55,949 bases of DNA, taken from positions 1 to 55,949 of the forward strand of contig JAHFMM010000001.1 of assembly GCA_023264495.1 (NCBI GenBank), written 5' to 3'. Shown here one piece after another: positions 48,034-55,949 of the stretch; positions within the stretch are counted from its first letter, which is position 1; every line of letters starts with the position of its first letter. The position numbers and the translations under genes are program-made. This DNA is from a bacterium. GTDB taxonomy: Bacteria > Patescibacteriota > Minisyncoccia > Phycocordibacterales > Phycocordibacteraceae. The notes under the pieces are model-generated. The model searched no databases. It saw only the letters and a list, made by a program, of their open reading frames with translations, and was not told the origin of the DNA.

Positions 48034-48073
48034 TTCTGAAATTACATACGGCGCGGCATAGCCGCATCAATAC

Positions 48074-48096
48074 AGCGCCGGCCCTTGGCCGGCGCT
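48074..48096. repeat. variant of hairpin 1 of the 80-nt double-hairpin repeat (partial copy C)
   Basis: AGCGCCGGCC-CTT-GGCCGGCGCT. Confidence 0.55.
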
Positions 48097-48148
48097 GTTC
48101 GCAAACTGAGGGTTGCGACAGGCTGTTCTTGGTAGGTGAACAATCCAT

Positions 48149-48189
48149 TATCCCCACACCAGGCTTGCACGCCCGCGCGAAGCGCGGGC
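48149..48189. repeat. hairpin-2 half of the 80-nt double-hairpin repeat (partial copy C)
   Basis: TATCCCCACACCAGGCTTGCACGCCCGCGCGAAGCGCGGGC, identical to the corresponding part of copy A. Confidence 0.75.
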
Positions 48190-48194
48190 TATTT

Positions 48195-48557
48195 TCAGCT
48201 GACGACCCCTTCTGGGAAGGGCGGATAGGTTGTGTCGACATAGGTGCGAATGGTCTCCTCGTCTTTCGGTGCGTCGACCGATGCTGTTTCCCACACGAGC
48301 GGCAATTCGAGACTGAAATAATCATGTGCGGCCCAATCGCGCATACCAGCCATTTCTCTCCAGGGGACATCAACGCGCGCACGCGTCTCTTCTGACACTT
48401 TCTTGGCGAGCTGACCGATAACTTCAAGTTGCATGATGACCGCGCTTTGAGTCTTCTGGTCAGAAAGAAAAGCGGTTTCATTCATGCCGGCGATAAATGC
48501 GCTGATCTTCCCGAATGAGTCCAGCATTAGTCGGAGATATGCTGAGTCATCCTTCAT
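48195..48557 (-). CDS. hepT: HepT-like (DUF86) ribonuclease toxin
   Basis: RX4HXY-type motif (MRDWAAHDY). Overlaps the upstream MNT gene. Confidence 0.85.
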   Translation of the reverse strand: MKDDSAYLRLMLDSFGKISAFIAGMNETAFLSDQKTQSAVIMQLEVIGQLAKKVSEETRARVDVPWREMAGMRDWAAHDYFSLELPLVWETASVDAPKDEETIRTYVDTTYPPFPEGVVS

Positions 48558-48840
48558 ACAGCGGTCGAAGGTCGCGGTAGATCGAATCGCGGAAGTATGG
48601 GATAATCGATCCCTCAGAAACCACGTCCACAGGGCGGTTTAGTCGTTCAGTAAGCATCTCGCGTAGCCCAACGTAATCACGCAATGACGCATGATCGCGA
48701 TACACAACGAGTACGTCTATATCGCTGTCCGGCCGCGCCGCGCCGCGCGCGAAGGAACCAAAGATATGCGCACGCTTCACGCCATATTTCTCGAATACGG
48801 GTCTCGCTTTTCTTGCAATATCTTCTATTGTTGGCTGCAT
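48547..48840 (-). CDS. mntA: MNT-type nucleotidyltransferase antitoxin
   Basis: FGSFARGAARPDSDIDVLV motif. The ATG at 48840 was chosen, with TGGTATAAT 6 nt upstream. Confidence 0.85.
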   Translation of the reverse strand: MQPTIEDIARKARPVFEKYGVKRAHIFGSFARGAARPDSDIDVLVVYRDHASLRDYVGLREMLTERLNRPVDVVSEGSIIPYFRDSIYRDLRPLYEG

Positions 48841-48868
48841 GCGCGCATTATACCATATGCTACAACAT

Positions 48869-48948
48869 AGCGCCGGCCGCTTTGCGGCCGGCGCTACGCT
48901 TGCGCTATCCCCACACCAGGCTTGCACGCCCGCGCGAAGCGCGGGCGT
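48869..48948. repeat. 80-nt double-hairpin repeat, copy A
   Basis: AGCGCCGGCCGCTTTGCGGCCGGCGCT...GCCCGCGCGAAGCGCGGGC. Identical to copy B except for the inverted loop of hairpin 2. Confidence 0.8.
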
Positions 48949-49012
48949 TATTCTACACGTATCCAATATTCTCCCTGCTACAATGGTCGACAAATATGGT
49001 ATGCTGAAGATA

Positions 49013-49243
49013 ATGAAAAATATCATTCAGTACCGCATCTTTAAGGGTGACAAATACTATGTCGCCGAGGGTTTGGATTTGCCGGTAGTTACGCAGGGCA
49101 AGACGCTCGATGAGCTTGCGAAGAATATCCAAGAAGCCACAGAGCTCTGTCTCGAAGGTGAGAATCCCGCCGACTTCGGTCTTGCACCGGCCTCTCCACT
49201 GTTCGTCAACTTCGAGTTGCCCCGCAGTTTCTCGCATGCCTAA
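49013..49243 (+). CDS. hicB: HicB-family antitoxin
   Basis: YRIFKGDKYYVAEGLDLPVVTQGKTLDELAKNIQEA. ATG 49013 is preferred because TGGTATGCT lies 7 nt upstream; ATG 49001 is also possible. Confidence 0.75.
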   Translation: MKNIIQYRIFKGDKYYVAEGLDLPVVTQGKTLDELAKNIQEATELCLEGENPADFGLAPASPLFVNFELPRSFSHA

Positions 49244-49484
49244 GCCGAAGATTCTCGCCGGGCAAGATATCGTACATATTTTCGAGAGCTTTGGATTCTC
49301 TGTAGTCGATCAACGGGGAAGCCATATCAAACTTCGTCGCGTTGTTGTAGACGGCTTGCGCGAAACGTTTACCGTGCCTAATCACAAAGAACTCGATCGC
49401 GGAACTATTGTCTCGCTGTACAGGCAAGCCTCGCGCTACATTCCAGAGTCCGAACTTCGGCCACATTTCTATAACCACAAATGA
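49236..49484 (+). CDS. hicA: HicA-family mRNA interferase toxin
   Basis: ESFGFSVVDQRGSHIKL...TVPNHKELDRGTI. Its start overlaps the hicB stop. Confidence 0.85.
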   Translation: MPKPKILAGQDIVHIFESFGFSVVDQRGSHIKLRRVVVDGLRETFTVPNHKELDRGTIVSLYRQASRYIPESELRPHFYNHK

Positions 49485-49502
49485 AAAGGGTTTCTTAGAC
49501 AG

Positions 49503-49582
49503 AGCGCCGGCCGCTTTGCGGCCGGCGCTACGCTTGCGCTATCCCCACACCAGGCTTGCACGCCCGCGCTTCGCGCGGGCGT
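49503..49582. repeat. 80-nt double-hairpin repeat, copy B
   Basis: Same 80 nt as copy A, with hairpin-2 loop TTC instead of GAA. Confidence 0.8.
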
Positions 49583-49603
49583 ACATAGTATACTGAGCCT
49601 ATC

Positions 49604-52600
49604 TTGAAGCAGTATTACACTCATCCTGTTACGGTCGCTTGTCTCGCTCTTATTGCGAGCGTTGGGAGCTTCTTCATCTATCAGAGTCTCGTCTCCGCAG
49701 CATCGTTTAACTTTATACAAGAGGGTTGGACAGGCGGTGTAACCAGCACTACCGCATATCACGGTACGAGCCCTCAACCAAACAATCAAACAGGGTGGAC
49801 CAAATTCTCTGCCACATCAACTCTGATGACCGTCGGTTCCACCGTGGCACTCACTCCTGTTGCGATGTCGTTCACCGATGATGGCACAGTCTCGACCACA
49901 TCGGCGAACTCGTCGCTCCCCAACTCAGCAAGTGGCGGAACCTTTGGATCGGGTACAAACTCATCAACAGCGATAACCGGTTCTGGAAGCGGAGCGAGTA
50001 TTACATTAACACCAGCAGGCACGCAAGCAGAATGCAACGCTCTCGCTACAAGTACGGGATCGGTCGTTGCATCCCTCTCGAGCGGTTATTGTTATATTCA
50101 ATTTAATTCATCGGGCACCTTTATCCCAACTGTTCCACTCAGCGTTGACTATCTTGTGGTGGGTGGCGGTGGTACTGGCGGGACATATGGCGGTGCCTTC
50201 GGGCCTGGTGGCGGTGGTGGCGCGGGAGGCTTTCTTTCTGGAGCAACAAGTACAACAGCGGTAACCTATACGGTAGTCGTCGGCGCACCAGCAGCGACAT
50301 CATCTATTTCCTTCAATCAAGGAACAATACAAGCTTATGCAGGCGGTGCCGGAGGCAGTGACAGAGGCGGTGCCGGAGGATCGGGTGGTGGTGCTGGAGG
50401 TGGCAAAACTAATCATACTGGTGGGGCAGGCACTTCAGGTCAAGGGAATAATGGTGGGGCAACCACTAACTGTCATTCCGGGGGTAATGGTTACTCTGCC
50501 GGAGCGGGCGGTGGCGGCGCGAATGCAGTGGGTGGTGATTCTAAGACTGACGCTCAAGGCGGTGGCGGTGGCGCTGGAGGAGCAGGAAAGGAGTGGCCAA
50601 CAGGGTCAGGAAATTATTATGCCGGTGGTGGCGGTGGTGGTGGCTATCCAAACACAACTTACTGCAGTGTCGCCGGGCCGGTAGGGTTAGGCGGTATAGG
50701 TGGAGGAGGGGGTGGTAGTAGTTCAACTACACCGTCCACCATAGGCACTCCAAATACTGGAGGTGGCGGAGGAAGCGGGTCAAGGCTTGGTGGTTCTGGC
50801 GTCGTTATCATTAGATATGCAGATGCACCAGTTTCTGGCACGTTCACTTCTGCTGTCATAAATCTTGGCAGTAAGACGGACTTCACCAGCAAAACATTTA
50901 CTTGGACAGATAACGCACAAGGGACTATCACGATGCGCGTGCGTGCGGCGGACAATAGCGGTATGAACTCCGGTTTGGTTGATTGGCAGACCATTGCTAA
51001 AGACGGCAGACTCGACTTGCTGACAAACTCTATTCAGGGAAAGCAATACATTCAATATGAAGCAACCTTGATTTCGGGGGCCGTTCTCAATAATGTTACC
51101 GTCAACTACAATCAATACCCCGCAACAGGGAGTCTGACGTCCTCGGTGTACGACACGCAGGACTCGACCAATGTGCCATCGAGCGTTGCATGGGCGACAA
51201 GCGGTACAGGGAGCGACGAGACAATCAAGCTTCAGGTGCGTACCTCTGCTGACGGAAATACATGGACCTCGTGGTGCGGAGCGTCCGCATGCAACGACAC
51301 CGATACTTTTACCTCTTCTCCGGGTACTATTAGCTCAAGCCACCCCCTCATCACTGATAGTATTGCCGACCGCTATATCCAATACAAAGCACTCTTCACC
51401 TCGAGCGGGGATGCGACGCTTACGCTCACCTCGGTCTCCCTTTCTTATGTGATCAACGTTGCTCCTGACGTAACGAATGTTACAGCGGTGCAGGGGAGTA
51501 CTAGCCTGGTAACGGTCGGCTATAATGTCGCCGACACCGACACTTCTACGGGAGTTGTTGATGTGACGCTCCAATACTGTCCAACAGGATTAACGTGTAC
51601 TCAGAACAGCGATACTAATTGGGTAAATGCAACGGCTGTTACCGGGCATGTTGGCACAGGAGTCGCGCTTGGCACCAGCAAGACCATAACGTGGACACCC
51701 GCGACTGATTACAGCAATCAATACAATTCCGGAGAGAAGATACGCGTCAAAGCGAGCGATCGCGAACTCGCTAATGCCTATGGGTACGGCATATCATCAT
51801 CTTTCACGCTCGACACGGCGGTACCCGTTATCACGGTCGCTACGCTCGATTCCTCAGCAACACCTGATAGGGTGAACATCACCGCCACGGATAATTCAAC
51901 AATCACCTACAGTCTCTGCAACGCATCCAACTTCACCGGGTGCGACACATGGCTCACGATCGATTCAGGTGTCGCGACCTCTTCTGCGTGGTCGGCAACT
52001 GGCTCTCCCAACGCTGAGACGGTATACATCAAAGTCCGCGATGCATACGGCAATGTGTCTACCAATATCACGAGTGTGACGGCTCCCGCAACCCCAGCAA
52101 GCTTCCTTAATGCCGACATCTCGAACCCGGCGGCGCAGTCATATGGCGAGGCCTTGAGCTGGTTGGTTGTTACAAATGCAGCTTCATACAAGGTGTACTA
52201 TGCGACGACGACAGCGGCCAGTACGGTGCCATCGGCGTCGGCGTACACATTGCTCGCAAGCCCGACGTCGAACATTTATTCACACAACATAACTACTGCG
52301 ACCTCATCTGCGTATTGGTATAAGGTTGCCGCAATAAATACGAATGGCGATATTTCAAACTTCACCACTATGGCGACAGGAGACGTGCCCGACAGCTACG
52401 GCACCCAGCTTCCTGACTCTGCGGCGCCGGTCATTACCGCAAGCTCCGTCGCTATCTCAAGCAACACACTCAAGAGTACCTCGGCAACCATCACTTTCAC
52501 CACTGATGAGATCGCGAGTTCCACCATTCGTTACTCATCAGCTATAGAGCACTCCCCGACCCCAGACGATACCTGTGCGTATGATCATTTTGCGTACTCT

Positions 52601-54796
52601 GGTAGCACCTACGTTACATCTCATAGTGTCTCCCTCACCAGTCTTACACCAAACACCGACTATTACTTCTGCATCTCTGCTGCTGATGCAGTGGGGAATA
52701 CGACAAGTCCAACACAAAACGCTTCTTATGGTACTTTCACATTCCACACCACAAGCGGACCAATCGTCTCAGGTGTTACTGATCAGAATACGGCCGGCAA
52801 TTCGACCACTATCTTCTGGAATACCTCTGTCGCGGCGGACTCGCATGCGTATTACTCGATGAGCAACACGCTCGCGAACCCTACCGTGAAGGGTACTGCC
52901 GATCTCGTTACGACTGCCGCTTCGCCCGGCGTCTATCAGCATCAAGTCGGCCTCTCGGGCCTCACGTCAGGTGTGAAATATTACTACTACGTTACCTCGA
53001 CCGATACTGATGGCAACACGACGACCGACAACAATAATGGCGCCTATTATAACTTCACAACCACGACCGATACGACCGCTCCTGCCATTTCGAATATCAC
53101 CACCCCCGTTCTTTCCGCTACAGCAGCTGTGATCACATGGCAGACCGACGAGCCGGCGACGAGCCAGATTACTTGGGGTACGGCGAGCGGCGCGCTCACT
53201 CGCACGACCGTCCTCGACTCAACAGCCTCGATTTACCACATCGTAACGCTCTCAAGCGCGACAAATGATACAACGAGCGCTATGCAAGTACTCACTGCTT
53301 CGACCCCGTATTACTACAAGGTCTTCTCAGCTGATACTACGGGCAATCAAGCATCTTCGACTGAAAAAACCCTCACGACTCCCTCGTCAGGTGACGTTAC
53401 TATCGTTGCAGGCGGCGGCGGCTCGGGCGGAGCGGGTTCAGGCTCGACCTCAGATGCAAATGCAGCGAAGATTATCAGTGCAACGGTCGACAATATCACC
53501 GCTTTCGGCGCTGATGTGAAGGTTACGACCGATAAAGATACGGTTACGACGATTAGTTATGGACCGACAGCTGTATACGGATCGAGCGTAGGGACGACGC
53601 TCTTCTCCGCATCAAAGACCATTTCGCTCTCGAATCTTACTGAGGGTACCACCTACCATTACCAAGTCATCGTATTCGATAAGGCCGGACACACGACCTC
53701 GTCTGGCGACCAGACATTTGATACCACGTTCGCTTCTGAAGCGCTCGACAACCTCATGACGCTTAGTAATGCCGCCGCCATCCAGAATAAACTCCAAGAC
53801 CTCATCCAGTCGGCACTCCCATCGCTCGCGCCGCCATTCATTACATCGCCCGTCGTGAGCTCGACAACCGAGAGTTCCGCAACCATTACCTGGAATACCA
53901 ACGTGAAAACGATGGGAACGCTCCGCTATGCGACCGCCGCTGACTACGCGGCGAATAAAGATTACACGACTGAAGTCTCGGCTGATCCGGTTGACTCGAT
54001 GGCGGTCGCACATGCGGTGGGTCTCGCCGCACTCACCCCGAACACGCTCTACCACTTCCAGGCGCGCTCCTATGTCTTCCCGCAAGTAGTTGGTTCAAGC
54101 CCAGACATAACCTTCTCGACGAGAGCCGCCGCTATCAGTCCGAATATCGTTGCAGTAAAGAATAACGGATTCACGGTCGTTTGGCAGTCTGCTGATCCGA
54201 CCTCCTCTATCGTGAATTACAAGAACGTGACAACCGGCCAAAGCGCAGTCCTCACCGACGAGACCAAGACCTCCTATCACAGTGTCGAGATCAAGGACCT
54301 TCCTTCAGGGGCCACCTATACCGTCTTTGTCTCCGGTAAGAACGCAAACGGCAATACTGCCGGTTCCGATCAGCCGATCAGCGTTACGACGAGTGTCGAC
54401 CTCACTCCGCCGGTCATCAGTAACTTCAAGGTTGATAATGCGCTTATCCCTGGCCGCGCCGACTTGATCCAGACCGTTGTCGGGTGGCAGACCGACAAGC
54501 TCGCGAACTCGACGGTCTATTATGAAGAAGGGGCGGGTAGCCAGAATGCGACCTCGACCGAGCTTAAGAACAAGACCGAATCGCTCGATGTCTACTCCAC
54601 GTCGCACGTCATGATCCTCGCCAGCCTCAAGCCAGGTACGGTCTACCGCATCAAGATCGTCTCGACTGATCAGAGCGGTAACACCAAGACCTTCGGCCCT
54701 ACCAGTATCATCACGCCGCAACAGACTCAGTCAGTCCTCGATATCATCGTCAAGAACTTCGCCGACACCTTCAGCTTCCTTGGGGCAGGGCAGTAA
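49604..54796 (+). CDS. giant (1730 aa) N-terminally anchored surface protein with a glycine-rich domain, Ig-like region and seven FN3/PAP-N-like repeats
   Basis: Single uninterrupted ORF with a hydrophobic N-terminus and a VDYLVVGGGG...GGSGVVIIRY Gly-rich block. Repeated units resemble xTITWxT...Y.Y.V...D..GN. The apparent start is TTG. Confidence 0.85.
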   Translation: MKQYYTHPVTVACLALIASVGSFFIYQSLVSAASFNFIQEGWTGGVTSTTAYHGTSPQPNNQTGWTKFSATSTLMTVGSTVALTPVAMSFTDDGTVSTTSANSSLPNSASGGTFGSGTNSSTAITGSGSGASITLTPAGTQAECNALATSTGSVVASLSSGYCYIQFNSSGTFIPTVPLSVDYLVVGGGGTGGTYGGAFGPGGGGGAGGFLSGATSTTAVTYTVVVGAPAATSSISFNQGTIQAYAGGAGGSDRGGAGGSGGGAGGGKTNHTGGAGTSGQGNNGGATTNCHSGGNGYSAGAGGGGANAVGGDSKTDAQGGGGGAGGAGKEWPTGSGNYYAGGGGGGGYPNTTYCSVAGPVGLGGIGGGGGGSSSTTPSTIGTPNTGGGGGSGSRLGGSGVVIIRYADAPVSGTFTSAVINLGSKTDFTSKTFTWTDNAQGTITMRVRAADNSGMNSGLVDWQTIAKDGRLDLLTNSIQGKQYIQYEATLISGAVLNNVTVNYNQYPATGSLTSSVYDTQDSTNVPSSVAWATSGTGSDETIKLQVRTSADGNTWTSWCGASACNDTDTFTSSPGTISSSHPLITDSIADRYIQYKALFTSSGDATLTLTSVSLSYVINVAPDVTNVTAVQGSTSLVTVGYNVADTDTSTGVVDVTLQYCPTGLTCTQNSDTNWVNATAVTGHVGTGVALGTSKTITWTPATDYSNQYNSGEKIRVKASDRELANAYGYGISSSFTLDTAVPVITVATLDSSATPDRVNITATDNSTITYSLCNASNFTGCDTWLTIDSGVATSSAWSATGSPNAETVYIKVRDAYGNVSTNITSVTAPATPASFLNADISNPAAQSYGEALSWLVVTNAASYKVYYATTTAASTVPSASAYTLLASPTSNIYSHNITTATSSAYWYKVAAINTNGDISNFTTMATGDVPDSYGTQLPDSAAPVITASSVAISSNTLKSTSATITFTTDEIASSTIRYSSAIEHSPTPDDTCAYDHFAYSGSTYVTSHSVSLTSLTPNTDYYFCISAADAVGNTTSPTQNASYGTFTFHTTSGPIVSGVTDQNTAGNSTTIFWNTSVAADSHAYYSMSNTLANPTVKGTADLVTTAASPGVYQHQVGLSGLTSGVKYYYYVTSTDTDGNTTTDNNNGAYYNFTTTTDTTAPAISNITTPVLSATAAVITWQTDEPATSQITWGTASGALTRTTVLDSTASIYHIVTLSSATNDTTSAMQVLTASTPYYYKVFSADTTGNQASSTEKTLTTPSSGDVTIVAGGGGSGGAGSGSTSDANAAKIISATVDNITAFGADVKVTTDKDTVTTISYGPTAVYGSSVGTTLFSASKTISLSNLTEGTTYHYQVIVFDKAGHTTSSGDQTFDTTFASEALDNLMTLSNAAAIQNKLQDLIQSALPSLAPPFITSPVVSSTTESSATITWNTNVKTMGTLRYATAADYAANKDYTTEVSADPVDSMAVAHAVGLAALTPNTLYHFQARSYVFPQVVGSSPDITFSTRAAAISPNIVAVKNNGFTVVWQSADPTSSIVNYKNVTTGQSAVLTDETKTSYHSVEIKDLPSGATYTVFVSGKNANGNTAGSDQPISVTTSVDLTPPVISNFKVDNALIPGRADLIQTVVGWQTDKLANSTVYYEEGAGSQNATSTELKNKTESLDVYSTSHVMILASLKPGTVYRIKIVSTDQSGNTKTFGPTSIITPQQTQSVLDIIVKNFADTFSFLGAGQ

Positions 54797-54808
54797 CAGA
54801 TGAAACAG

Positions 54809-54838
54809 AAAACCCGTCCGCGCATGCGGACGGGTTTT
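54809..54838. terminator. bidirectional terminator between the giant gene and tRNA-Ser
   Basis: AAAACCCGTCCGC-GCAT-GCGGACGGGTTTT. Confidence 0.7.
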
Positions 54839-54843
54839 CTCTT

Positions 54844-54933
54844 TGGCGGAGACGGTGGGATTCGAACCCACGGGGGCATTTCTGCCCCGCCTCGTTAGCA
54901 GTGAGGTACTTTCGACCACTCAGCCACGTCTCC
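54844..54933 (-). tRNA. tRNA-Ser(GCU): tRNA-Ser (anticodon GCU) with a long variable arm and encoded CCA
   Basis: Hand fold: acceptor GGAGACG/CGTCTCC, anticodon loop CTGCTAA, variable arm GGGGC-AGAAAT-GCCCC, T arm GTGGG-TTCGAAT-CCCAC, 3' GCCA. Confidence 0.9.
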
Positions 54934-54986: not shown

Positions 54987-55613
54987 TCAATGCGAAAGAG
55001 CGATAGGGATGATATGTTTTGCGCCCGCGGCAGTCAGCGCATCGATACCTGCTTGGAGCGTGGCGCCGGTCGTGAGGACGTCATCAATGATGATATACGT
55101 CGTTTCCGGATAGAGGACATGCGCGGCGCCGAAGGCGCCGCGCATGTTCGCTTCTCGCTCCGCACGCGGGAGTGAGACTTGCGACACGGTCTCACGGACG
55201 CGAGAAAGAATATTTGCGTGCAGGACAATGCGAGACATGCCTTCTGCGCCAAGCACACCAAGAGCGCATCGTGCCACTTCTTCGGTCTGATTAAATCCGC
55301 GCGTCTTACGCCGGAGCTTCCCGAGCGGTATGGGTATGAGCGTTCCTGCCTGCACGTCCTCGTCAAGATCGCGCAGGTATTCGGCGAGAACGCCGCCAAG
55401 AAGAGTGATGGCGCGGCGATTCCCATGATATTTTGCTTCATGCATGAGAGATGCCACCATCGGATCAGAGAATGAGAGAAGCGTTACCGTCCCCGGCCGT
55501 GTTGCCGGAGAGAGTTGCGGCGAGACACGGCTCGATACGTCATCTTCGGTCGCCTGGCGGACCGCAAGCTCGTCCACACGAGGAGGGAAGAGAAGGTCAA
55601 GGAAGCGCTTCAT
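54987..55613 (-). CDS. comF: ComF-family phosphoribosyltransferase-fold protein
   Basis: PRTase motif IIIDDVLTTGATL. The ATG at 55613 was chosen. The N-terminus lacks the usual Cys pairs. Confidence 0.8.
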   Translation of the reverse strand: MKRFLDLLFPPRVDELAVRQATEDDVSSRVSPQLSPATRPGTVTLLSFSDPMVASLMHEAKYHGNRRAITLLGGVLAEYLRDLDEDVQAGTLIPIPLGKLRRKTRGFNQTEEVARCALGVLGAEGMSRIVLHANILSRVRETVSQVSLPRAEREANMRGAFGAAHVLYPETTYIIIDDVLTTGATLQAGIDALTAAGAKHIIPIALSH

Positions 55614-55630
55614 GGTAGTATTATTCTCAC

Positions 55631-55949
55631 ATGGCGTTCCTCGATTTCCTATTTCAGAAGAAGGCGCAAAGCGTTCTGGGCGTTGACATCGGCTCATCGT
55701 CTCTCAAGGTCGTGCAGCTCCGCCGCGAGCGCGGGCAGGCAGTGCTTGAGACGTATGGCGAGCTCGCGCTCGGCCCTTATGGCGGATCGGAGGTTGGCCA
55801 GGCGACCAATCTCTCGGCTGAGCAGGTAACCGAGACGCTCACTGACCTCCTGCGCGAGGCGAAGGTGACGACAACGCAGTGCGGTGTCTCGATACCGTTT
55901 GCCCGATCGCTGCTTGCTCTCGTGAAGCTTCCCTATCGCAAGGACACGA
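55631..55949 (+). CDS. pilM: type IV pilus assembly protein PilM, N-terminal part (runs off the window)
   Basis: My own translation from ATG 55631: MAFLDFLFQKKAQSVLGVDIGSSSLKVVQLRRERGQAVLETYGE... Not in the ORF track because there is no stop in the window. Confidence 0.8.
   Translation, partial: MAFLDFLFQKKAQSVLGVDIGSSSLKVVQLRRERGQAVLETYGELALGPYGGSEVGQATNLSAEQVTETLTDLLREAKVTTTQCGVSIPFARSLLALVKLPYRKDT

Follow-up and report, generated by a model that had tools for sequence, protein, structure and literature searches.

A TTG-started Patescibacteria gene for a probable Sec-exported, fiber-like modular protein with a phage-fiber-type glycine-rich domain

The leading candidates for the means by which ultra-small Patescibacteria locate their hosts and hold on to them are giant surface proteins, none of which, to our knowledge, has been characterized. 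Contig JAHFMM010000001.1 of assembly GCA_023264495.1 (Patescibacteriota, Phycocordibacteraceae), whose forward-strand positions 1 to 55,949 make up the stretch of 55,949 nucleotides analyzed here (the window), carries at 49604-54796 (+) a very large open reading frame (ORF) that begins with TTG. Does this frame encode such a protein, and is TTG its start? Our answer, to which we assign a probability of roughly 0.6, is that it is an intact accessory gene of Patescibacteria (Paceibacteria/Yonathbacteria-like), started at TTG, for a Sec-exported, fiber-like modular protein with a role in recognition or attachment. After its signal peptide, the predicted product consists of a family-specific N-terminal domain (N-domain), a glycine-rich domain, about 12 immunoglobulin (Ig)- or fibronectin type III (FN3)-like domains (seven of purple-acid-phosphatase-N type), and a conserved C-terminal module in which the last three FN3 domains stand between a helix and an amphipathic tail.

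A preliminary description made from the letters alone had reported a single ORF of 5.2 kb, and the frame is indeed single and intact: no in-frame stop or frameshift occurs within its 1,730 codons, which specify a protein of 1,730 residues. An in-frame TAG (49586-49588, +) closes the frame upstream, and between this stop and the first hydrophobic segment the TTG at 49604-49606 (+) is the sole ATG, GTG, or TTG, in agreement with that description. The G+C content of the gene (0.537) is close to that of the genome (0.541) and its codon usage is native-like, so that composition gives no sign of a recent foreign origin. The protein is acidic, with 28% Ser plus Thr overall and six closely spaced Cys pairs, a composition that would fit an extracytoplasmic location. 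The public entry for this gene (P0002) is shorter, with 1,287 residues; it begins at ATG 50933-50935 (+; residue 444) and omits the first 443 residues. Were this call right, the protein would lack a signal peptide and the upstream 443 codons would go untranslated. In favor of the call, no start type other than ATG is well supported in the genome, and the gene caller chose this one, but the omitted residues are 36 to 50% identical to those of relatives and include a conserved signal peptide, the conserved N-domain, and a Gly_rich_2 domain that scores as significant in Pfam and folds with confidence. Because this part is conserved, and because ATG 50933 has no −10 box upstream and lies inside a beta-sandwich domain modeled by AlphaFold2 (AF2), we judge ATG 50933 to be a mis-called start and the 1,730-residue form to be the gene, and we hold the shorter protein to be very unlikely. 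Gene callers probably cut other non-ATG genes without Shine-Dalgarno sequences in such genomes in the same way.

The restored N-terminus has the layout of a signal peptide. By rule-based prediction, residues 1-32 (49604-49699, +) comprise a short basic n-region (MKQYYTHP), an 18-residue h-region (VTVACLALIASVGSFFIY), and a polar c-region (QSLVSA) that ends in V-S-A and is followed by ASFNF. In each of the 12 relatives whose 5′ end is readable, a small residue stands at −3 and Ala at −1, followed by A-(T/S/I)-(Y/F)-x-F; their n- and c-regions vary freely, and the A-x-A↓A site in the window fits the −3/−1 rule. Because the cleavage-type site is kept while the flanking regions vary, this pattern argues for cleavage by signal peptidase, and the hydrophobic segment is more probably a cleaved Sec signal peptide than the anchor for which it had first been taken. 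The C-terminus (...KNFADTFSFLGAGQ) also lacks an LPXTG motif and a transmembrane segment, and the sorting-signal families in NCBIfam returned zero matches for the whole protein. We considered and rejected truncation of the 5′ end by an insertion, since the closest relative (L021, described below) has an equally short n-region in register. In these respects the protein differs from sortase-anchored (LPXTG) adhesins of Gram-positive bacteria, which have a motif and a hydrophobic C-terminal segment that are missing here, and from type I-secreted RTX/BIg adhesins such as LapA and SiiE, since it carries a Sec-type signal peptide, whereas that type has none and is marked by a C-terminal type I secretion signal with RTX GGxGxD repeats. 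Neither Pfam nor NCBIfam reported an RTX repeat family in it, and its Gly-rich part belongs to PF21722 instead. The LapA/SiiE type is furthermore found with an adjoining HlyB-type exporter, whereas the ATP-binding cassette (ABC) system that neighbors this gene is of MacB type with a separate ATPase.

The mature protein would begin with the N-domain (residues 33-165; 49700-50098, +), recognizable by ASFNFIQEGWTGG...FTDDG..., which is rare and lacks a Pfam model. When 1.84 billion representative proteins were searched exhaustively, it turned up in 24 clusters only, always near an N-terminus, and a Pfam search with the isolated domain returned nothing above noise level. The Ser/Thr-rich stalk that had been proposed is part of this conserved N-terminal domain.

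The next domain bears most directly on function. Residues 166-411 (50099-50836, +) form a glycine-rich domain of phage-fiber type, in which beta strands and Gly-rich motifs are closed by GSGVVIIRY. Pfam assigns residues 170-405 to Gly_rich_2 (PF21722) with 35.9 bits against a gathering cutoff of 24.3, covering profile positions 3-225 of 226, so that the Gly-rich domain noticed earlier now has a family assignment above threshold. A first AF2 run with 19 full-length relatives gave a predicted local distance difference test score (pLDDT) of only 40 to 56 in this domain; with an alignment of 41 short Gly_rich_2 proteins, the model reached a pLDDT of 89.7 and a predicted template modeling (TM) score of 0.87. 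It has beta strands at both ends and a long, confidently modeled stretch to which DSSP gives no class, which would fit extended glycine motifs. The model matches predicted viral proteins annotated as "glycine-rich domain" with E values down to 1e-18, TM scores up to 0.8, and 35 to 42% identity; these come from cyanophages, a pelagiphage, a haloarchaeal phage, and prasinoviruses. At the sequence level the domain matches PHROG 2295 (E = 9e-23).

Between the glycine-rich domain and the C-terminus, the protein is predicted to be a long series of beta sandwiches. AF2 models residues ~406-930 as a string of such domains at a pLDDT of about 75 to 90, and we delimit five Ig/FN3-like domains at residues 412-930 (50837-52393, +), with conserved Cys pairs and, as the last of the five, a weak fn3 match at residues 839-922. 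An Ig-like middle region had been suspected, and its Foldseek matches are indeed to FN3/Ig arrays, including contactins, fibronectin, titin, the Aureispira grappling hook protein GhpA, and the T5 tail tip. Pfam searches with isolated middle segments (residues 406-948) and with the tail returned noise only, as did NCBIfam with the whole protein, and phmmer with residues 1-939 found zero matches among Protein Data Bank (PDB) sequences. Farther along, Pfam recognizes Pur_ac_phosph_N (PF16656; E = 1e-25, 90.5 bits against a cutoff of 30) in seven stretches and fn3 (PF00041; E = 2.5e-9, 37.7 bits against a cutoff of 25). A hidden Markov model (HMM) built up from a single repeat finds seven units across residues 948-1701, with the fn3 match at 839-922 as a marginal eighth. 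The first unit, of PAP_N-like type and found by both Pfam and the self-built HMM, covers residues 948-1038 and starts at 52445 (52445-52717, +), where the preliminary description had the repeats begin at about 52.4 kb. The self-built HMM places the others at residues 1055-1144 (repeat 2; 52766-53035, +), 1161-1254 (repeat 3; 53084-53365, +), 1279-1369 (repeat 4; 53438-53710, +), 1413-1499 (repeat 5; 53840-54100, +), 1510-1590 (repeat 6; 54131-54373, +), and 1619-1701 (repeat 7; 54458-54706, +). The array is interrupted by a Gly-rich linker (residues ~1269-1284) in front of repeat 4 and by a predicted helical linker (residues ~1374-1410), so that seven FN3/PAP-N-like repeats are present, as first proposed, but not in strict tandem. 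This second linker, FASEALDNL...IQSALPSLAPPF (53723-53857, +), is conserved, has a helix-favoring sequence, and opens the C-terminal module, which closes with a conserved amphipathic tail (ITPQQTQSVLDIIVKNFADTFSFLGAGQ) and the stop codon (54707-54796, +). Seven is also the commonest repeat number among relatives (14 of 24; range, 3 to 8), and because it is the modal number the repeats are old and not the product of a recent tandem expansion. Together, domain HMMs and per-segment structure prediction recover the FN3 repeats, Gly_rich_2, and the middle sandwiches; the families that emerge from Pfam (Pur_ac_phosph_N, fn3, and Gly_rich_2) are generic binding and spacer modules.

Relatives show which parts of this architecture are constant. 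The family scan drew on a pattern search, one genome per GTDB species, the C-terminal 335 residues, and a five-sequence C-terminal alignment. It located the C-terminal module in 27 loci at 28 to 74% identity (at least 40% in 25 of the 27), with full-length coverage in 24, of which 23 reach at least 40% identity. The genomes concerned are labeled Yonathbacteria, Paceibacteria/Paceibacterota, Minisyncoccia, or Nomurabacteria; some of the records are labeled Saccharibacteria, and a few carry unrelated labels. Three of the loci lie on contigs labeled Burkholderiales (L036), Thermoplasmata archaeon (L037), and beta proteobacterium (L047); because the distribution is otherwise strictly patescibacterial, these contigs look mis-binned. 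What members have in common is a signal peptide, an N-domain, and a C-terminal module made up of the helix, three FN3 domains, and a tail of the form ...ITPxQTxSxxDxIxKNFxDxFxFL. The middle "cargo" varies: it is glycine-rich in some members, consists of NHL/SGL propellers in P0003 and P0004, and is of RCC1 type in L021. The last of these (L021:3302-5440; Patescibacteria UBA6033) is the closest relative, with 74% identity in the C-terminal module and 712 residues from its ATG. In this protein the helix and the last three FN3 domains, the only FN3 domains present, follow directly on RCC1-type propeller repeats, which by sequence comparison makes it a clear case of cargo swapping inside the family. 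In Patescibacteria more widely, related glycine-rich domains are combined with LamG, SPRY, and lectin-like modules. We would accordingly see the glycine-rich domain as an exchangeable recognition cargo and the C-terminal module as the part that may interact with the cell's own machinery.

Searches of close relatives of the bacterium did not find the gene. The C-terminal module was found in none of 40 congener species genomes, where only generic FN3 matches came up, and the N-terminal 432 residues in none of 40 relatives (24 congeners and 16 genomes of the same order). Judged by these sequence searches, it is a sporadic accessory gene.

How would such a gene be started? A TATACT box (49589-49594, +) lies exactly 9 nt ahead of the TTG, as the preliminary description had it. 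We surveyed 480 non-overlapping ORFs of this 560-kb genome for a TANNNT box 6 to 9 nt upstream of the first start, and found one before 113 of 326 first-ATG starts (35%). TATACT is the commonest −10 hexamer of the genome, with 218 copies, 77 of which have an ATG 6 to 9 nt downstream. No Shine-Dalgarno enrichment is visible among the ORFs of the genome, and the 3′ end of the 16S rRNA is not in the assembly. The putative promoter of the giant gene thus has the layout of the 113 boxed ATG genes, with the −10 box right upstream of the start as in leaderless genes of the Mycobacterium, Caulobacter, and Deinococcus type (PMC4633059, PMC8459731); it departs from them in its TTG, since leaderless transcripts normally begin with a 5′-terminal AUG (or GUG in some phyla). 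Two further features of the boxed genes were recorded. The distance from box to ATG is bimodal, with 44 genes at 6 nt, 28 of 113 at 9 nt, and fewer at 7 and 8 nt, a count that is slightly biased, because shorter gaps were tried before longer ones. At position −2 relative to the box, G predominates (68 of 113), which resembles an extended −10 element (TGn).

Comparison with relatives suggests where the TTG came from. In a near-ungapped alignment, TATACT-9 nt-TTG of the window stands in register with TATGCT-9 nt-ATG of L021, the signal peptides being 32 and 31 residues long, and 11 of the 12 relatives with a readable 5′ end start with ATG. Because the TTG is the positional equivalent of the L021 ATG, an ATG-to-TTG substitution in this lineage is suggested as the simplest reading, its direction being unpolarized by an outgroup. 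The remaining relative, a Yonathbacteria locus (L029:2904-3100), has no ATG ahead of its signal peptide, only GTG, and its upstream frame resembles a frameshifted copy of the usual MKNIFHHS... N-terminus; either the sequence contains an error here or the family has a second allele with a defective start. An exact-pattern scan of metagenome contigs for the start region of the giant gene, with any base allowed at the first position of the start codon, found nothing.

Several observations weigh against our reading, and the start codon provides the first of them. In the same survey, a box precedes only 1 of 70 GTG starts (1.4%) and 3 of 84 TTG starts (3.6%), against an in-gene background of 2.6%, so a leaderless gene with TTG would be unique in this genome and might be translated poorly or not at all. 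The second concerns the glycine-rich domain, whose top-ranked matches among solved structures (the fiber protein gp24 of cyanophage Pam3, the glycine-rich domain of ALK, and the Bxb1 tail tip) are not significant: the Pam3 fiber is reached at E = 0.02 in a profile search of the PDB, with high compositional bias, and by Foldseek (7ypx) at E = 0.013 with a TM score of 0.28. The third concerns gene neighborhood. Of the 27 related loci, 15 have the family gene directly adjoining an ABC ATPase and a MacB_PCD/FtsX permease, and the orthologs of this pair in the genome studied here (G000) are at C12:55461-55973 and C30:27597-26656, unlinked to the giant gene.

The first of these points could mean that the gene has been switched off, that is, that the ATG-to-TTG change created a null allele or nascent pseudogene whose frame is still open only because the change happened recently, or because it exists as a minority or consensus variant in the population. 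Genome-wide, the −10 boxes 6 to 9 nt upstream are enriched before ATG only, which upholds the earlier remark that TTG is odd for a leaderless transcript: TATACT copies with TTG (15) or GTG (7) 6 to 9 nt downstream occur at chance level, and only two of these open a frame of at least 80 codons, the giant gene being one. The ATG of L021 in the same register also favors a lost start, as do the recombinational activity of the locus, with its repeat-bounded toxin-antitoxin cassettes, and work in Caulobacter, where changing AUG to UUG drastically lowers expression of a leaderless reporter and only 4.4% of natural leaderless mRNAs have non-AUG starts (PMC8459731). By analogy, TTG should lower expression of the giant gene sharply. 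Against a null allele, the 1,730 codons are free of stops and frameshifts, domain signatures, Cys pairs, and cleavage site are intact, and codon usage is native-like; ribosomes might also initiate at UUG at a low level, which may be appropriate for a protein that is costly to make. Transcription from the purine A49601, 7 nt past the box, would yield an mRNA beginning AUC-UUG, in which both codons are near-cognate and in frame. On balance we consider a null allele unlikely and favor translation from TTG 49604 behind a genome-typical TATACT at leaderless spacing.

If the protein is made, its most likely role, by analogy with phage fibers and with giant surface proteins of the candidate phyla radiation (CPR), would be to recognize a ligand on the surface of another cell and attach to it. 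The distal tip of Pam3 gp24 combines a TNF-like sandwich with a lattice of glycine-rich motifs and has been proposed to recognize the host receptor (PMC9608196). The domain of the giant protein has in common with such fiber tips (Pam3 gp24, PDB 7YPX/7YFW; Salmonella phage S16 gp38) and with ALK/LTK (7LIR) a set of GGGGxGG-type motifs on a beta scaffold, as well as a closing strand of the form G-(I/V)-(I/V)-I-x-(R/Q)-Y. Its position is different: in phage the domain is the distal C-terminal tip of a trimeric fiber, whereas here it sits near the N-terminus of a Sec-exported protein, and no chaperone gene was seen next to the giant gene. Because the fold is confidently predicted and matches fiber proteins of phages and algal viruses, the comparison suggests that the glycine-rich domain may serve as a receptor-recognition module. 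One could go further and take the whole gene for a prophage- or phage-derived tail fiber rather than a cellular surface protein, given how common the domain is in phage fiber proteins. This we regard as highly improbable: no phage structural, integrase, or lysis genes flank the gene, its product carries a Sec signal peptide, and its relatives lie in cellular contexts beside an ABC transporter.

A cellular counterpart is offered by the giant surface proteins of CPR/Patescibacteria, for example those of Vampirococcus lugosii, which are likewise large, exported, and built of interaction modules of the fibronectin, Ig, and lectin types. In V. lugosii the ten longest membrane proteins have 1,392 to 4,163 residues, and their role in host recognition or attachment was inferred, not shown (PMC8080830). 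The giant protein of the window resembles them in architecture and forms part of a separate small family, whose distinguishing marks are the N-domain with its 24 clusters and the C-terminal module. A phage-fiber-type Gly-rich domain, paired cysteines, and a sporadic accessory distribution make a host-attachment adhesin plausible. A secreted or envelope protein with a structural or nutrient-capture role, such as an S-layer-associated protein or a binder of polysaccharides or particles, would account for part of the same evidence, since the domains are generic binding and spacer modules, no direct link to a host emerges, and related glycine-rich domains of Patescibacteria are paired with LamG, SPRY, and lectin-like modules. 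We think such a role improbable, slightly more so than a null allele: absence from all 40 congeners and a swappable cargo fit a specificity determinant better than a core part of the envelope, and a weak start speaks against an abundant S-layer protein.

The setting of the gene is consistent with its accessory character. In congeners the backbone of this region reads GroEL - HlyD - MacB/ABC - DUF378 - ... - tRNA-Ser(GCT) - ComF, and in the window a segment of ~6.8 kb (48034-54843), made up of two toxin-antitoxin cassettes bounded by an 84-nt repeat and of the giant gene, fills the slot between DUF378 and tRNA-Ser(GCT). This segment is missing from G007, where ~260 nt separate DUF378 from the tRNA; the slot holds an enolase and a phosphatase in G005, and G024 has a serine-recombinase/methylase island on the far side of the tRNA. 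By this comparison the DUF378/tRNA-Ser slot is a genus-wide variable hot spot. Of the 84-nt double-hairpin repeats bounding the cassettes, the third copy (49499-49582, +) ends ~20 nt 5′ of the start and stops short of the −10 box. We examined whether the cassette repeat supplies the promoter and rejected this, as the 21 nt between the end of the repeat and the TTG are unique in the genome. At its other end the giant gene is followed by a 15-bp GC-rich palindromic hairpin (54807-54840, no strand assigned) whose plus-strand 3′ arm ends in TTTTCT, then CTTT, and which acts as a terminator between the giant gene and the convergent tRNA-Ser(GCT) (54844-54933, −), the right border of the variable slot. 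The insertion is ~1 kb from a divergent gene pair that includes comF (window 54987-55697 and 55631 onward), and the comparison of genomes suggests that the nearness of the giant gene to the comF region is a by-product of the insertion site, with no conserved linkage.

The transporter pair found beside the family gene elsewhere deserves separate mention. Its ABC ATPase has a C-terminal extension of ~200 residues and a length of 446 to 476 residues where the full length is readable, and the two transporter genes either lie upstream of the family gene and diverge from it or follow it in the same direction. The orthologs in G000 are 72 to 77% (ABC) and 61 to 72% (MacB) identical. Both are incomplete at contig ends: the tailed ABC ATPase (N-terminal 171 residues) runs off the end of C12 and the MacB (C-terminal 314 residues) off the end of C30, and the two contigs are almost certainly neighbors across a gap of ~1.1 kb. 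By analogy with the congener G054, these transporter genes look like part of a neighborhood with ATP synthase genes. Within the genus sample, the MacB of the tailed pair occurs in G000 and G054 only, and in G054 no giant gene lies next to it. Another transporter set, HlyD-ABC-MacB, which lies ~1.9 kb upstream of the giant gene, is different and belongs to the genus-wide backbone; we rejected it as the family partner, since congeners keep the set without the giant gene and the true orthologs are on other contigs. A link between fiber and transporter, drawn from neighborhood in relatives and partial co-occurrence, is suggestive only. The giant protein has the C-terminal module in common with the patescibacterial cassettes of tailed MacB-type transporter and giant protein, although in those loci the giant gene adjoins the transporter and in G000 it lies apart from it, in the tRNA-Ser insertion. 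Extending the analogy of FtsEX-type complexes, which hold or activate extracellular partners, we tentatively suggest, as an idea that is on the whole doubtful, that the C-terminal module could be a docking tag by which a tailed MacB-type machine holds, releases, or mechanically drives surface fibers, acting in trans here, and that the TTG could be a throttle on a recently relocated gene.

The giant gene is a member of a kind already well known in Patescibacteria (PMC8080830); what sets it apart is its TTG at a leaderless-type promoter, its tRNA-adjacent insertion together with toxin-antitoxin cassettes, and its separation from the usual ABC partner. On our preferred reading it provides a clean, complete example of a phage-fiber-type recognition domain mounted on an FN3 stalk, and it shows such genes to be sporadic and accessory, set in a variable slot next to a tRNA. 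The automatic gene call removed what is functionally the most interesting third of the protein. The TTG start, finally, lies in a genome whose other starts close to a promoter are all ATG, and it offers a natural test of whether ribosomes of Patescibacteria are able to begin translation with a near-cognate codon positioned at the 5′ end of an mRNA or close to it, an answer that would bear on gene calling throughout the phylum.

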